A stretch of DNA of 64,000 nt from Escherichia coli (lineage in GTDB: Bacteria; Pseudomonadota; Gammaproteobacteria; Enterobacterales; Enterobacteriaceae): the NCBI RefSeq assembly GCF_050920415.1, contig NZ_CP169309.1, one strand, 5' to 3'. The stretch's first letter is position 1; every line of letters begins with the position of its first letter. The position numbers were made by a program, and so were the translations under genes. Below are positions 9,583 through 44,531 of the stretch, piece after piece. Below the pieces are notes generated by a model that did not search any database, was not told the DNA's origin, and saw only the letters and a list, made by a program, of their open reading frames with translations.

Positions 9583-10425
9583 ATGCATTCACTCCAACGT
9601 AAAGTTCTGCGTACTATTTGTCCGGACCAAAAAGGTCTGATCGCCCGTATTACTAATATTTGCTATAAGCACGAGTTAAATATCGTGCAGAACAATGAAT
9701 TTGTTGATCACCGTACCGGGCGCTTTTTTATGCGCACGGAACTGGAAGGCATTTTTAATGATTCCACCCTGCTGGCGGATCTCGACAGCGCATTGCCAGA
9801 AGGCTCCGTACGTGAGCTGAATCCTGCCGGTCGTCGCCGGATAGTGATTCTGGTCACTAAAGAGGCGCATTGCCTTGGCGATTTGTTGATGAAAGCCAAT
9901 TACGGCGGCCTGGATGTCGAAATCGCGGCAGTTATTGGTAACCACGATACTTTACGTTCTCTGGTTGAGCGTTTTGATATTCCGTTTGAGCTGGTAAGTC
10001 ATGAAGGATTAAGTCGCAACGAGCACGATCAAAAAATGGCGGATGCCATTGACGCTTATCAGCCTGACTACGTGGTGCTGGCGAAGTATATGCGCGTATT
10101 AACGCCAGAGTTCGTAGCACGCTTCCCGAATAAAATTATCAATATTCACCATTCATTCCTGCCAGCGTTTATCGGTGCACGTCCCTATCACCAGGCCTAT
10201 GAGCGTGGCGTGAAGATTATTGGTGCAACCGCTCACTATGTGAATGACAATCTGGATGAAGGCCCAATCATCATGCAGGACGTTATTCATGTCGATCATA
10301 CATACACGGCTGAAGATATGATGCGTGCAGGTCGTGATGTCGAGAAAAACGTATTAAGCCGCGCGCTTTACAAAGTGCTGGCGCAGCGTGTATTTGTTTA
10401 CGGTAACCGGACGATTATTCTTTAA
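9583..10425 (+). CDS. purU: Formyltetrahydrofolate deformylase
   Basis: 280-aa ORF MHSLQRKVLRTICPDQKGLIARITNICYKHELNIVQN...; ACT domain plus formyltransferase domain. Confidence 0.95.
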   Translation: MHSLQRKVLRTICPDQKGLIARITNICYKHELNIVQNNEFVDHRTGRFFMRTELEGIFNDSTLLADLDSALPEGSVRELNPAGRRRIVILVTKEAHCLGDLLMKANYGGLDVEIAAVIGNHDTLRSLVERFDIPFELVSHEGLSRNEHDQKMADAIDAYQPDYVVLAKYMRVLTPEFVARFPNKIINIHHSFLPAFIGARPYHQAYERGVKIIGATAHYVNDNLDEGPIIMQDVIHVDHTYTAEDMMRAGRDVEKNVLSRALYKVLAQRVFVYGNRTIIL

Positions 10426-10507: not shown

Positions 10508-10543
10508 TTTACAGCGGCGTGTCATTTGATATGATGCGCCCCG
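10508..10543 (+). promoter_or_regulatory. tyrT promoter (-35 TTTACA 10508-10513, -10 TATGAT 10530-10535, GC-rich discriminator GCGCCCCGC)
   Basis: Matches the classic stringently controlled tyrT promoter; 16-bp spacer; leaves a leader of about 43 nt before the mature tRNA 5' end at 10586. Confidence 0.8.
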
Positions 10544-10585
10544 CTTCCCCACAAGGGAGCAGGCCAGTAAAAAGCATTACCCCGT

Positions 10586-10670
<85 letters not shown>

Positions 10671-10704
10671 TCTCAAGCATTACATCAAAATTTGAATTAT
10701 CCCT

Positions 10705-10770
<66 letters not shown>

Positions 10771-10789
<19 letters not shown>

Positions 10790-11506
10790 TCACTTTCAAA
10801 AGTTCCTGAAATCCCCAACAAATCCACAATTAAATATTCTGCCCATGCGGGGAAGGATGAGAAGCTTCGACTAAGGTTCGACTCGAGCGCCAGCGAGAGA
10901 GCGTTGCCGCAGGCAACGACCCGTAGGGCGAAGCGCGCAGCGCTGAGTAATCCTTCCCCCACCACCATCACTTTCAAAAACCCCTGTATTCTCCAACGAA
11001 TCCGTAACTGAATATTCTGCCCATGCGGGGAAGGATGAGAAGCTTCGACTAAGGTTCGACTCGAGCGCCAGCGAGAGAGCGTTGCCGCAGGCAACGACCC
11101 GTAGGGCGAAGCGCGCAGCGCTGAGTAATCCTTCCCCCACCACCATCACTTTCAAAAACCCCTGTATTCTCCAACGAATCCGTAACTGAATATTCTGCCC
11201 ATGCGGGGAAGGATGAGAAGCTTCGACTAAGGTTCGACTCGAGCGCCAGCGAGAGAGCGTTGCCGCAGGCAACGACCCGTAGGGCGAAGCGCGCAGCGCT
11301 GAGTAATCCTTCCCCCACCACCATCACTTTCAAAAACCCCTGTATTCTCCAACGAATCCGTAACTGAATATTCTGCCCATGCGGGGAAGGATGAGAAGCT
11401 TTGACTAAGGTTCGACTCGAGCGCCAGCGAGAGAGCATTGCCGCAGGCAACGACCCGTAGGGCGAAGCGCGCAGCGCTGAGTAATCCTTCCCCCACCACC
11501 ATCACA
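10771..11506 (+). repeat. tyrT-operon 178-bp tandem repeats (4 full units starting at 10771, 10949, 11127, 11305, plus a 24-bp partial); rtT RNA/tpr region
   Basis: Each unit starts with the tRNA 3' motif AATCCTTCCCCCACCACCATCAC; exact 178-bp period read from the sequence; copies near-identical apart from the first unit and two substitutions in the fourth. Confidence 0.9.
11391..11480 (+). pseudogene. tpr: tpr (protamine-like peptide) frame interrupted by TAA at codon 6
   Basis: ATG AGA AGC TTT GAC TAA... encodes MRSFD-stop; the same TAA is present in all four repeat copies. Read-through would give the Arg-rich 29-aa peptide I recall for K-12 tpr (from memory). Confidence 0.35.
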
Positions 11507-11623: not shown

Positions 11624-11650
11624 ATAAAAAAACCCCGCCGAAGCAGGGTC
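11624..11650 (-). terminator. Rho-independent terminator after narI
   Basis: Minus-strand CCCTGC-UUCG-GCGGGG hairpin (one G-U pair) followed by a U7 run, about 20 nt past the narI stop. Confidence 0.6.
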
Positions 11651-11669
11651 TGTGTGAACTAAAATTCAC

Positions 11670-12347
11670 TTAGTGGCGAGCGCGCACCAGCTGATACTTA
11701 CGTGTCAGATACTCCACCGGGACACTCCAGATGTGCACCAAACGCGAGAACGGGAACAGCAGGAATAACGTCATCCCCAACACCAGGTGCAGACGGAAGA
11801 TAAACGCCACACCATCAAGGTGTTGAGAAGCGCCACCGTGGAAGGTCACCACCGACTGCGCCCAGCCAACCAGTTTCATCATCTCGCTACCGTCCATATG
11901 TTGGGCAGAAAATGGAATAGTCAGCAGACCCAACGCGCACTGGATAACGAGCAGCGACAGGATCAGGATGTCCGCCCCGGTAGTCGTTGCACGCACACGC
12001 GGGCTGAACAGGCGGCGTTTCAGCAACAGCACGCCGCCAATCAGACACAGCACGCCGCTGGCACCACCAGCAATCATCGCCATTTTCTGTTTCACTTCAA
12101 TTGGCAACCACGCTTCATACATCCAGTGCGGCGTCAGCATACCGAAGAAGTGGCCGACAAAAATCCCCAGAATTCCGATATGGAACAGGTTCGACGCCAG
12201 GTTCATCCCTTTGCGATCCAGCATCTGGCTGGATGCCGCGCGCCAGGTGTACTGCCCGTAGTCATAGCGCAGCCAGCTACCAATCAGGAAGACGGCCCCG
12301 GCTATGTACGGGTAGATATCAAAGAAGAACATATTCAGGAATTGCAT
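11670..12347 (-). CDS. narI: Respiratory nitrate reductase gamma subunit (heme b)
   Basis: 225-aa polytopic membrane [38 protein letters not shown]...; last gene of narGHJI. Confidence 0.95.
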
Positions 12348-39726: not shown

Positions 39727-40818
39727 ATGGGATTCAAATGCGGTATCGTCGGTTTGCCCAACGTCGGGAAATCTACCCTGTTCAACGCGCTGACCAAAGC
39801 CGGTATTGAAGCGGCCAACTTTCCATTCTGCACCATCGAGCCGAACACAGGCGTCGTACCAATGCCTGACCCTCGCCTGGATCAACTGGCTGAAATCGTA
39901 AAACCGCAGCGTACGCTTCCCACGACCATGGAATTTGTCGATATCGCCGGTCTGGTAAAAGGCGCATCGAAAGGCGAAGGTCTGGGTAACCAGTTCCTGA
40001 CCAACATCCGTGAAACCGAAGCGATCGGTCACGTTGTTCGCTGCTTTGAAAACGACAACATCATTCACGTTTCCGGCAAAGTTAACCCGGCGGATGATAT
40101 TGAAGTTATCAACACAGAACTGGCGCTGGCAGACCTCGACACCTGCGAACGTGCGATTCATCGCGTACAGAAGAAAGCCAAAGGCGGCGATAAAGACGCG
40201 AAAGCCGAGCTGGCGGTACTGGAAAAATGCCTGCCACAGCTGGAAAACGCAGGTATGCTGCGCGCGCTGGATTTAAGCGCTGAAGAGAAAGCGGCTATTC
40301 GTTACCTGAGCTTCCTGACGCTGAAACCAACAATGTACATCGCCAACGTCAACGAAGACGGTTTTGAAAACAACCCGTATCTTGACCAGGTGCGTGAAAT
40401 CGCGGCGAAAGAAGGTTCTGTTGTGGTTCCGGTTTGTGCTGCTGTTGAAGCAGACATTGCCGAACTGGACGACGAAGAACGTGACGAGTTTATGCAGGAG
40501 CTTGGGCTGGAAGAGCCGGGCCTAAACCGCGTGATCCGTGCCGGTTATAAGCTGCTGAACCTGCAAACTTACTTCACCGCTGGGGTGAAAGAAGTGCGTG
40601 CATGGACCATTCCGGTTGGTGCAACCGCGCCGCAGGCCGCTGGCAAAATCCATACTGATTTTGAAAAAGGCTTTATCCGTGCACAAACTATTTCGTTCGA
40701 AGATTTCATCACTTACAAAGGTGAACAAGGCGCGAAAGAAGCGGGCAAAATGCGTGCAGAAGGTAAAGATTACATCGTTAAAGATGGCGATGTAATGAAC
40801 TTCCTGTTCAATGTCTAA
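39727..40818 (+). CDS. ychF: Ribosome-binding ATPase YchF (Obg family)
   Basis: 363-aa ORF with G1 motif [15 protein letters not shown] and TGS domain. Confidence 0.96.
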
Positions 40819-41064
40819 TTAATTTGTTGTCTCATGAGGTTTCGCTAAATCTCATGAAGAGCGCAAAAGTATATAAAATCCACGCAATTGCGTGGATTTT
40901 TTCATTTCACCGAGTCCTAACCATTCTTATAACATCCTACACTTTTGTGCTTATTGCCTATAGTGAACCACGAGAATAATTAAAGACATAAGTGTTCAGA
41001 TGAGGGATATCTCATTAGCAATGAGATCACGTAAGTTTGTGTTCCACTGCACATCAGACACCTT

Positions 41065-41295
41065 TTACAGCTGATCAATATTGATCACGTTCCAATATGC
41101 TGGCGAGAAAAGGACTTGCCTGAAGAGCAATATCCAGCAGATAAAGCCCCCGAATAACGTGATTACGTGCGATCCTGGCAAGATGAAAATGATAACCAGT
41201 ATCACGATAATAACGATATGCCAGAAAATCCATTGATCAAAAATGAATATCGATGTTTTTTGCTTTTTCTTATTAGTAATGCAAAAATGGCTCAT
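41065..41295 (-). CDS. Hypothetical small membrane protein (76 aa), unannotated candidate
   Basis: ORF MSHFCITNKKKQKTSIFIFDQWIFWHIVIIVILVIIFILPGSHVITLFGGFICWILLF... has a Lys-rich N-terminus followed by one or two hydrophobic helices; lies in AT-rich DNA, so a chance ORF cannot be excluded. Confidence 0.25.
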   Translation of the reverse strand: MSHFCITNKKKQKTSIFIFDQWIFWHIVIIVILVIIFILPGSHVITLFGGFICWILLFRQVLFSPAYWNVINIDQL

Positions 41296-41663
41296 ATTGT
41301 TTTTGTTATGCAGTTACATCAAGCGAAAATCCCATAACTAATTAGGATTATTACCAAAAATATTCACCAAATTATTTAACCGCTGTTTGTTGTAATGTTT
41401 TTGTCATATTCATAGTAACGAATTGGAATAAGTAACGACAACTTAGGGAATAACTCGATCTAAACTCACCTTTGTAAAGGGGATGTTAAATATATATTAA
41501 TTCCTGTGTTCCTGATTTTGCCCGGTAATAGAGAATTATTCTCAGAGCAGCTCATCATGATTGCACCATACAAATATCATGATGATAAGAGGATATTATT
41601 CATTGACTTAAACAAAATGACAAAATCCATAGACCCATAGCTTGGGTACTATATAGGAGTGGT

Positions 41664-44531
41664 ATGGGCATCAAACAACACAATGGGAATACCAAAGCCG
41701 ATCGTCTCGCTGAATTAAAAATCCGTTCGCCCTCCATTCAACTGATAAAATATGGCGCTATTGGTTTGAATGCAATTATCTTTTCCCCCCTGCTGATAGC
41801 TGCTGATTTAGGAAGTCAAAATGGCACCAATATTACTATTAATGATGGTGACAGAATTACAGGAGATACCGCCGATCCATCAGGAAACCTCTATGGTGTA
41901 ATGACCCCAGCAGGAAACACGCCTGGCAATATCAACCTGGGTGATGATGTCACCGTCAATGTCAACGACGCCTCTGGATATGCAAAGGGAATCATTATTC
42001 AGGGCAAGAACAGCTCTCTGACAGCTAACCGACTTACAGTAGATGTTGTTGGTCAAACCTCTGCCATCGGCATTAATTTAATTGGTGACTATACACATGC
42101 TGACTTAGGCACAGGCAGCACCATTAAGAGTAACGATGACGGCATCATTATTGGGCATAGCTCAACACTAACAGCCTCTCAATTCACCATTGAAAACTCG
42201 AACGGTATAGGCCTAACCATCAATGACTATGGCACCAGTGTCGATCTTGGAAGCGGTAGTAAAATCAAGACCGATGGAAGTACAGGTGTTTATATCGGTG
42301 GTCTCAACGGCAATAACGCCAACGGTGCTGCGCGTTTTACGGCGACAGACCTGACAATCGATGTTCAGGGCTACAGCGCCATGGGAATAAACGTACAGAA
42401 AAACTCTGTTGTCGATCTCGGAACAAACAGTACCATTAAAACCAATGGCGATAATGCACACGGCCTCTGGAGCTTTGGCCAGGTGAGCGCGAATGCACTC
42501 ACTGTTGATGTAACTGGAGCCGCTGCCAATGGCGTCGAAGTTCGTGGTGGTACAACCACTATCGGTGCTGATAGCCATATTTCTTCCGCGCAGGGCGGTG
42601 GCCTCGTAACCAGTGGTTCAGACGCGACAATCAATTTTTCTGGCACGGCAGCGCAACGAAACAGCATCTTTTCCAGCGGTTCTTATGGTGCCTCAGCCCA
42701 GACGGCAACGGCTGTTATCAACATGCAAAATACCGATATTACGGTTGATCGTAATGGCAGTCTGGCGCTGGGTTTGTGGGCGCTCAGCGGCGGTAGAATA
42801 ACCGGAGACAGTTTGGCTATCACCGGCGCGGCAGGAGCCAGGGGGATTTATGCCATGACCAACAGCCAGATCGATCTCACGAGCGATCTGGTCATTGATA
42901 TGAGTACACCCGACCAGATGGCCATCGCAACGCAACATGACGATGGTTATGCCGCCAGCCGCATCAACGCCTCGGGTCGTATGCTTATCAACGGTAGCGT
43001 TCTTTCTAAAGGTGGGCTAATCAATCTGGATATGCACCCTGGGTCGGTTTGGACAGGTTCTTCCCTCAGCGATAATGTCAATGGCGGAAAACTGGACGTT
43101 GCAATGAATAACAGCGTCTGGAACGTAACAAGTAATTCTAATCTCGACACGCTGGCGCTGAGCCATTCAACTGTCGATTTTGCCAGCCACGCGTCAACTG
43201 CCGGCACATTTACCACATTAAACGTAGAGAACCTTAGCGGTAACAGTACCTTTATTATGCGTGCTGATGTTGTTGGCGAGGGTAATGGCGTTAATAATAA
43301 AGGAGATTTATTGAATATCTGCGGGAGTAGTGCTGGTAATCACGTATTGGCTATCCGTAACCAGGGCAGCGAGGCCACAACGGGAAATGAAGTTCTGACA
43401 GTGGTAAAAACCACTGACGGCGCGGCCTCGTTCAGCGCGTCTTCTCAGGTTGAGTTGGGGGGATATCTGTATGATGTGCGTAAAAATGGCACTAACTGGG
43501 AGCTTTATGCTTCCGGGACAATTCCGGAGCCGACTCCTAATCCAGAGCCCACACCAGCTCCCGCTCAGCCCCCCATAGTCAACCCCGATCCTACGCCTGC
43601 CCCCGCTCCCACGCCTAAACCCACCACGACCGCAGATGCTGGCGGCAATTATCTCAATGTCGGTTACTTATTGAACTATGTTGAAAACCGTACGCTGATG
43701 CAACGGATGGGTGACCTGCGAAATCAGGGTAAAGACGGTAATATCTGGTTGCGCAGTTATGGGGGAAGCCTGGACTCCTTTGCCAGTGGCAAACTGAGCG
43801 GCTTTGACATGGGTTACAGCGGTATCCAGTTTGGTGGGGATAAACGTCTCTCTGATGAAATGCCGTTGTATGTCGGTCTGTATATTGGCTCAACACATGC
43901 ATCGCCGGACTATAGCGGAGGCGACGGTACCGCACGTTCAGACTACATGGGAATGTACGCCAGTTACATGGCACACAACGGTTTTTACAGCGATCTCGTT
44001 GTAAAAGCATCGCACCAGAAAAATAGTTTCCACGTACTGGACAGTCAGAACAACGGCGTTAACGCCAACGGCACTGCGAATGGATTGAGCATCTCCCTGG
44101 AAGCCGGGCAGAGGTTCAACCTGACCCCTACTGGTTATGGGTTCTATATAGAGCCGCAAACCCAGCTCACATACAGCCACCAGAATGGGATGGCTATGAA
44201 GGCGAGTAATGGTCTCAATATACATCTGAATCACTACGAATCGCTGCTGGGGCGTGCCAGCATGATACTGGGATATGACATCACCGCAGGCAACAGCCAG
44301 CTGAATGTCTATGTGAAGACTGGCGCTATCCGCGAGTTTTCAGGGGATACCGAATATCTGTTGAACAACTCCCGGGAGAAGTACAGTTTCAAAGGTAATG
44401 GCTGGAATAACGGCGTGGGAGTCAGTGCACAGTATAACAAACAGCACACATTCTATCTCGAAGCGGATTACACGCAGGGTAACCTCTTTGATCAGAAGCA
44501 AGTCAACGGAGGATATCGCTTCAGCTTTTAA
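41664..44531 (+). CDS. ycgV: Autotransporter adhesin (YcgV-type; type Va secretion)
   Basis: 955-aa ORF; GGAG SD upstream; repetitive Gly/Thr/Asn-rich beta-helix passenger; Pro-rich linker PEPTPNPEPTPAPAQPPIVNPDPTPAPAPTPKPTTT; C-terminal beta-barrel ending ...GGYRFSF. Confidence 0.9.
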   Translation: MGIKQHNGNTKADRLAELKIRSPSIQLIKYGAIGLNAIIFSPLLIAADLGSQNGTNITINDGDRITGDTADPSGNLYGVMTPAGNTPGNINLGDDVTVNVNDASGYAKGIIIQGKNSSLTANRLTVDVVGQTSAIGINLIGDYTHADLGTGSTIKSNDDGIIIGHSSTLTASQFTIENSNGIGLTINDYGTSVDLGSGSKIKTDGSTGVYIGGLNGNNANGAARFTATDLTIDVQGYSAMGINVQKNSVVDLGTNSTIKTNGDNAHGLWSFGQVSANALTVDVTGAAANGVEVRGGTTTIGADSHISSAQGGGLVTSGSDATINFSGTAAQRNSIFSSGSYGASAQTATAVINMQNTDITVDRNGSLALGLWALSGGRITGDSLAITGAAGARGIYAMTNSQIDLTSDLVIDMSTPDQMAIATQHDDGYAASRINASGRMLINGSVLSKGGLINLDMHPGSVWTGSSLSDNVNGGKLDVAMNNSVWNVTSNSNLDTLALSHSTVDFASHASTAGTFTTLNVENLSGNSTFIMRADVVGEGNGVNNKGDLLNICGSSAGNHVLAIRNQGSEATTGNEVLTVVKTTDGAASFSASSQVELGGYLYDVRKNGTNWELYASGTIPEPTPNPEPTPAPAQPPIVNPDPTPAPAPTPKPTTTADAGGNYLNVGYLLNYVENRTLMQRMGDLRNQGKDGNIWLRSYGGSLDSFASGKLSGFDMGYSGIQFGGDKRLSDEMPLYVGLYIGSTHASPDYSGGDGTARSDYMGMYASYMAHNGFYSDLVVKASHQKNSFHVLDSQNNGVNANGTANGLSISLEAGQRFNLTPTGYGFYIEPQTQLTYSHQNGMAMKASNGLNIHLNHYESLLGRASMILGYDITAGNSQLNVYVKTGAIREFSGDTEYLLNNSREKYSFKGNGWNNGVGVSAQYNKQHTFYLEADYTQGNLFDQKQVNGGYRFSF

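Follow-up and report, generated by a model that had tools for sequence, protein, structure and literature searches.

Downstream of its two tyrosine tRNA genes, the tyrT-tyrV operon of Escherichia coli carries a 178-bp repeat that contains both a conserved RNA element, RtT, and a short reading frame, one copy of which is annotated in K-12 as the gene tpr. In the 64,000-nucleotide stretch of E. coli DNA analyzed here (the window), this frame is closed by the same stop codon in every copy of the repeat. This raises the potential that the lineage represented by the window has lost a small basic protein that other strains make. Alternatively, it is also possible that the frame is only an incidental feature of the repeat, in which case a closed frame need not be a loss at all. 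Having compared the locus with K-12, with other E. coli genomes and with other enteric bacteria, we consider it very likely that the region is the distal tyrT-tyrV operon of a rare E. coli lineage, carrying a four-RtT array in which the tpr frame is incidental.

The operon opens with a sequence that we take to be the tyrT promoter (10508..10535, plus strand), in which TTTACA, a 16-nt spacer and TATGAT are followed by the G+C-rich GCGCCCCGC; a consensus scan gave 10 of 12 matches, and the sequence is the same as that at the K-12 tyrT promoter position. Two tRNA-Tyr (GTA) genes were located by ARAGORN on the same strand, the tyrT equivalent at 10586..10670, which also has an Rfam tRNA match and is 100% identical to K-12, and the tyrV equivalent at 10705..10789, with a 34-bp spacer (10671..10704) between them. 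The repeat array starts within the second of these genes, at 10771, so that the last 19 nt of the gene are also the start of unit 1. Beyond the array lies narI on the minus strand (11670-12347, from the open reading frame list and NCBI annotation), with its intrinsic terminator at 11630..11651 on the same strand. The terminator scan that identified this feature found no intrinsic terminator on the plus strand 3' of the tRNA genes. In K-12, transcription ends within the repeats, and termination there is Rho-dependent.

Tandem Repeats Finder (TRF) reported positions 10771-11505 as one head-to-tail array with a constant period of 178 bp, 4.1 copies, 97% matches and 0% indels, a periodicity far above chance. 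On unit comparison the array comprises 4.13 copies on the plus strand: unit 1 at 10771-10948, unit 2 at 10949-11126, unit 3 at 11127-11304, unit 4 at 11305-11482 and a partial copy at 11483-11505. The earlier note on this sequence had described an exact array of four full units plus a 24-bp partial copy. The four units stand, while the partial copy is 23 bp, base 11506 departing from the unit sequence. Likewise, the array is exact in its period and not in its sequence. There is no difference between units 2 and 3. Two substitutions (C98T and G133A, numbered along the unit) set unit 4 apart from this pair, and unit 1 departs from it at 11 sites, all of which fall in a 31-nt spacer at unit positions 32-62. 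When each distinct unit sequence is given its own type, the array reads u01-u02-u02-u03.

Each unit contributes a full-length RtT RNA element (RF00391) on the plus strand, at 10836..10967, 11014..11145, 11192..11323 and 11370..11501. The first three score 132.8 bits and the fourth 124.0 bits, against a gathering score of 45 bits; one of the two substitutions in the fourth makes a hairpin pair weaker, and all four matches span positions 1-130 of the 130-position model. The first element begins 47 nt 3' of the second tRNA-Tyr gene. Every unit ends in approximately the last 20 nt of tRNA-Tyr including the CCA, AATCCTTCCCCCACCACCA, and this segment pairs with an upstream GGGGAAGG to close the conserved RNA fold. 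When the Rfam structure was mapped onto an alignment of 147 unique RtT sequences, the closing stem was paired in 141-147 of them, and most pairs were kept in more than 95% of the sequences, across genera. The pair between RtT positions 43 and 89 is U-A in most RtT elements and a U-U mismatch in all four window copies. Fifteen of the 147 unique elements share this variant, among them the ones from Nissle 1917 and L6-21.

These features place the array firmly alongside the RtT repeats of K-12. The two share the gene order purU, tyrT, tyrV, repeats, narI, the 178-bp period, full-length and high-scoring matches to the same RNA family, and the tRNA-Tyr 3'-end motif that closes each unit. They differ in that the window has four units downstream of the tRNA genes where K-12 has three, in that the window units are approximately 93-95% identical to those of K-12, and in that RtT position 37 is U, not C, in every window unit, with U-U at pair 43-89 besides. 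The K-12 tyrT operon carries a 178-bp sequence repeated 3.14 times. The earlier note named the locus correctly, and the K-12 copy number of about 3.14 that it gave agrees with our TRF analysis of MG1655, which returned 3.1 copies of the same unit. The deposited genome of E. coli MFDS1022581 (NZ_CP169399.1) is 100% identical to the window region, and its NCBI (PGAP) annotation lists purU, two tRNA-Tyr genes, four copies of "RtT sRNA" and narI, leaving tpr unannotated. The window locus is thus an already known, NCBI-annotated element in an unremarkable copy-number state.

We then considered the tpr frame itself. In K-12, the curated record places tpr (b1229) in the first repeat, 68 nt 3' of tyrV, and the annotated frame gives a 29-aa product. 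The window frames occupy the same position in the RtT unit and begin with the same ATG, which lies inside the RtT closing stem directly after GGAAGG, with zero spacer. They run on the plus strand at 10857..10946 (unit 1), 11035-11124 (unit 2), 11213-11302 (unit 3) and 11391-11480 (unit 4). Each reads MRSFD and then stops at a TAA in codon 6 (10872-10874, 11050-11052, 11228-11230 and 11406-11408), as the earlier note had seen; beyond the stop, 23 further Arg-rich residues can be read. Of the 29 codons of K-12 Tpr, 27 have an identical or conservative counterpart in the window. The differences are TAA for CAA at codon 6 of every copy, which leaves an ORF of 5 codons, and E23V, which is caused by the U-U change at RtT pair 43-89. 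None of the four units has an uninterrupted 29-codon ATG frame, and no window copy could yield the 29-aa peptide from its ATG. We also considered an alternative start that would bypass the stop and rejected it, the other listed ORFs in the units being TTG-initiated only and in a different frame.

The same stop is not foreign to K-12. Of its four RtT copies, only the first downstream one has an open frame: repeat 2 has TAA at codon 6, repeat 3 has CAA at codon 6 followed by TGA at codon 10, and the copy between the tRNA genes has a GTG start and TAA at codon 6. The earlier note had proposed a comparison with the final K-12 repeat, which is in fact the copy closed by TGA at codon 10. It had also held that a TAA shared with K-12 would undermine its reading; K-12 does have that TAA in repeat 2 and in the inter-tRNA copy, while its first repeat is open.

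To place these states in a wider context, we used a pattern scan that required conserved RtT sequence and allowed any base at four positions, from the end of codon 5 into the start of codon 6. Taking one genome per species, the scan yielded 99 loci, nearly all from Enterobacterales, and 157 RtT-like elements. Codon 6 was TAA in 107 of these elements, CAA in 40 and TGA in 2. The frame stopped after 5 codons in 109 elements and reached 27-30 codons in only 14, and a 1-nt indel splits the downstream translation into two unrelated frames. The claim that TAA marks a loss therefore does not hold, because TAA is the majority state and the open frame the exception, which makes the open frame of K-12 probably the derived state. 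The structure of the RNA accommodates both. The first base of codon 6 is RtT position 37, which sits in a helix opposite a near-invariant G at position 92, and among the 147 unique sequences 97 have U-G here and 44 have C-G; since either base can face the G, both U (TAA) and C (CAA) are tolerated. At codon 10, too, the stop (TGA for CGA) arises when a paired RtT base changes from C to U. The closed TAA frame is the common state in enteric bacteria, with U probably ancestral. RtT-like elements are widespread and often tandem in Enterobacterales, with Enterobacter ludwigii, for example, carrying five copies at a 167-bp period. A few matches fell in records labeled as non-enteric (Chryseobacterium, Martelella and a Cellvibrionaceae MAG), and these may reflect contamination or mislabeling.

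If tpr were conserved as a protein, its frame should be open in relatives and its variation should show an excess of synonymous changes, and we found neither. Among 25 variants of the tpr frame within E. coli, 16 were nonsynonymous, 5 synonymous and 4 nonsense, and they fell at codon positions 1, 2 and 3 in the proportions 14/6/5. With no protein constraint, we would expect approximately 65-70% nonsynonymous, 25-29% synonymous and 5-6% nonsense changes. These 25 variants, a small number, carry no coding signature. Taken together, these observations indicate that it is the RNA (or DNA) element that has been conserved and that the open frame in K-12 is a lineage-restricted by-product. On balance we favor the view that tpr is a non-conserved, polymorphic frame that was opened by a U-to-C change at an RtT G-U pair, that its ancestral state is closed, and that it now segregates in E. 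coli, possibly as a nascent ORF.

We next asked how the frame and the array vary within E. coli, using identity-band counts over 5426 complete genomes together with 18 further strains sampled at even steps down a ranking of genomes. The exact 90-nt open frame of K-12 occurs in 2029 of the 5426 genomes, whereas 727 have no match at all to the 90-nt tpr query; genomes with a match have it in 1-9 places, with a median of 2. Among the 19 strains formed by the window and the sample, 13 have at least one 29-codon ATG frame, and the frame is absent from BL21, O157:H7 Wll001, E10, 2015C-4136CT1, AVS0744 and the window. Two sampled strains carry no RtT unit. Given that BL21, an O157:H7 strain, E10 and the two RtT-free strains all do without an intact frame, the earlier suggestion that tpr is dispensable is well founded. 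The sampled strains range from 0 to 5 downstream units, have one or two tRNA-Tyr genes, and have or lack the internal RtT, so that the four units of the window are above average yet ordinary.

The surroundings of the locus vary as well. In Nissle 1917, 2015C-4136CT1 and AVS0744, a block with a fatty-acid/sterol desaturase gene adjoins tRNA-Tyr or the last RtT, and the RtT array is gone in two of these three strains. UPEC-455U and E10 have an IS4 transposase gene approximately 250 bp 3' of a single RtT unit, and E10 and AVS0744 have one tRNA-Tyr gene at the locus. Plasmids in the E. coli genome collection account for 18 of the places where the 90-nt tpr/RtT segment is matched. We considered whether the units themselves might be relics of an integrative element, given the islands and IS4 that adjoin the locus in some strains, and rejected this, the units having no integrase remnant and being conserved as RNA across genera.

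The closest relatives of the window offer a view of how such arrays change. The exact window allele (TAA at codon 6 and GTA at codon 23) is found in only 6 of the 5426 genomes. The 34-bp tRNA spacer is common to all five relatives with this allele, four of which also have the same purU allele as the window and the narI sequences closest to its own. Their unit counts are 2, 3, 3, 4 and 4, compared with 4 in the window, and their arrays read u01-u04-u05, u02-u06-u07-u08, u01-u04-u09, u01-u10 and u11-u12-u13-u13. Shared units thus appear at different array positions among the six strains, with u02 doubled in the window and u13 in RMDEC465. Units with TAA and units with CAA are mixed within the relatives' arrays, and four of the six members of the lineage retain a CAA unit. 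In the two-unit relative (u01-u10), both units carry TAA, and a single substitution separates the second from u02 and likewise from u03.

These patterns point to unequal recombination and gene conversion as the mechanism of array turnover. Long, near-identical direct repeats of this kind would allow units to be added, removed and shuffled by unequal crossing-over, replication slippage and gene conversion. For the window, the simplest history would start from a two-unit, all-TAA array whose second unit was duplicated twice. A TAA-bearing unit would then have been duplicated, in keeping with the identity of units 2 and 3 and the two nucleotides that separate them from unit 4, and every copy would already have carried the stop. 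The earlier proposal that the array evolves by unequal recombination gains from the units that close relatives share in differing order and number (2-4), and unequal recombination has long been established for the tyrT repeat locus. The su3 duplication of tyrT/tyrV is a classical case of instability, in which the duplicate tRNA is lost by unequal crossing-over. The array resembles VNTRs and unstable tRNA duplications in its head-to-tail units, its copy-number differences between close relatives, its identical neighboring units and the existence of strains with a single tRNA-Tyr gene. Nothing about it is out of the ordinary for such repeats. At 178 bp its unit is long, and a structured RNA lies within it; for this reason the RtT core is homogenized while the 30-nt spacer differs between units.

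We also examined whether the divergence of the array from K-12 (to approximately 93% identity) could be specific to the repeat, and rejected this possibility. The flanking genes are equally diverged, with 92.2% identity at the 3' end of purU (10145-10425) and 94.8% at narI, and thus the divergence of the array reflects the lineage and not the repeat. At ychF-ycgV (40000-44000), identity to K-12 is approximately 97%, and 18 of the 5426 complete genomes are at least 99% identical to the window there. By these sequence comparisons, the window strain belongs to a rare, deep-branching E. coli lineage.

A second difference from K-12, unremarked in the earlier note, lies between the tRNA genes. The K-12 counterpart of the 34-bp spacer is 209 bp long and contains an internal RtT copy, so that the window and K-12 both total four RtT elements despite their different downstream counts. 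The difference is a precise 175 bp, flanked by a 20-bp direct repeat, AATCCTTCCCCCACCACCAT, which is the common end of tRNA-Tyr and RtT, and recombination at this repeat would account for the clean absence of the inter-tRNA RtT. The K-12 inter-tRNA copy is of a diverged, GTG type. Because GTG-type copies are found in many genera, the copy was probably deleted from the window.

With respect to expression, the K-12 annotation describes rttR as "processed from tyrT transcript". In the account of Skippington and Ragan (PMC3318445), rttR is a multi-copy sRNA that one of the tyrT repeat units encodes, and two strains are inferred to have lost it. A 2024 preprint likewise derives rtT RNA from the tyrT transcript by processing and gives it a possible role in modulating the stringent response, by a mode of action that it calls unknown. 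Transferring the coordinates of K-12 rttR (b4425, 171 nt) relative to tyrV predicts an equivalent at 10797..10967 on the plus strand, which would start 8 nt 3' of tyrV and end at the CCACCA of unit 1. By analogy with K-12, it is mainly the first unit or units that would be transcribed and processed into RtT RNA, and four copies in place of three would probably have little phenotypic effect. On the function of RtT itself, the window adds nothing decisive.

How, then, do the other explanations of this locus fare? It would be of some physiological consequence if tpr encoded a functional small basic protein that had truly been lost in the window lineage through a nonsense codon spread by gene conversion. 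The exact K-12 open frame is common within E. coli, occurring in the 2029 genomes noted above, most sampled strains retain at least one 29-codon frame, and a CAA unit persists in four of the six members of the window's lineage. The frame could possibly be a young, E. coli-specific peptide with a lineage-specific function. In addition, tpr is one of 25 ORFs for which, according to the Keio update (PMC2824493), a wild-type copy persisted in the deletion mutants, and which were described as "candidates for essential genes". Yet PCR and recombination would be expected to give such a result when the target is a triplicated repeat. Given that the target is of this kind and that natural strains lack the frame, the listing is best read as a repeat artifact, which it probably is. 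The comparative evidence also weighs against a functional protein: TAA is in the majority across genera, the downstream frame is unconserved, nonsense and nonsynonymous variants in E. coli are at or above the neutral expectation, and BL21, O157:H7 and RtT-free strains live without the frame. There is neither an NCBIfam model for a Tpr family nor a PGAP annotation. A Tpr product was reportedly obtained in vitro in 1981. Detection of the peptide in cells is unreported in the literature that we searched, outside which the reports of 1981 and 1991 lie. We therefore regard the loss of a functional protein as very unlikely.

We give equally little credence to the idea that the four-copy count is an artifact, produced by expansion or collapse during assembly of a repeat with two identical 178-bp units. 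The number of identical units cannot be fixed by short reads, and the exact configuration comes from a single record. However, that record is a finished circular chromosome, the independently assembled relatives have arrays of two to four units of their own, unrelated strains also have arrays of 4-5 units, and the observation of TAA is independent of the count. A different proposal accepts the count and gives it a purpose, with RtT copy number selected as a dosage device that sets the amount of RtT RNA, or acts through Rho-dependent termination or 3' processing, and so tunes tRNA-Tyr or the stringent response. The sequence and fold of RtT are very strongly conserved across genera, multi-unit arrays recur in many species, and copy number differs even among close relatives, all of which this proposal would accommodate. 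Against it, strains with zero RtT exist, the variation resembles that of any neutral tandem repeat, and the distal units may go unexpressed if, as in K-12, transcription ends within the repeats. That copy number could serve to tune tRNA-Tyr processing or the stringent response by dosage is a further and less likely step, and we think it improbable, if a little less so than the two preceding explanations. We accordingly retain the view that the array is a conserved RNA repeat with an incidental tpr frame, in which U or C at codon 6 would both be tolerated.

The opposite strand of the array presents a similar case. A 92-aa antisense ORF (11227..11505, minus strand) and longer overlapping versions (11049-11450, 10871-11272 and 10522-11094, minus strand) give a set of 92-190 aa frames across the array that are 87% identical to YchS (b1228), which in K-12 spans repeats 2-3 on the opposite strand. 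The window has several overlapping versions because it has more units. These ORFs match no NCBIfam model, and they are unannotated by PGAP in the identical deposited genome. To dismiss them as repeat artifacts, as had been done from the sequence, is reasonable, even though they are homologous to a named K-12 gene, and ychS of K-12 is itself likely to be a repeat artifact.

For the window strain, these results are of little import: the array is of the textbook kind, and its copy number is a normal allele. The one mildly new result is the comparative case against counting tpr and ychS as real conserved genes. As a by-product for annotation, the K-12 "protamine-like protein" Tpr and YchS both look like incidental frames in a conserved RNA repeat, and common laboratory and pathogenic strains (BL21 and O157:H7) are without an intact tpr.
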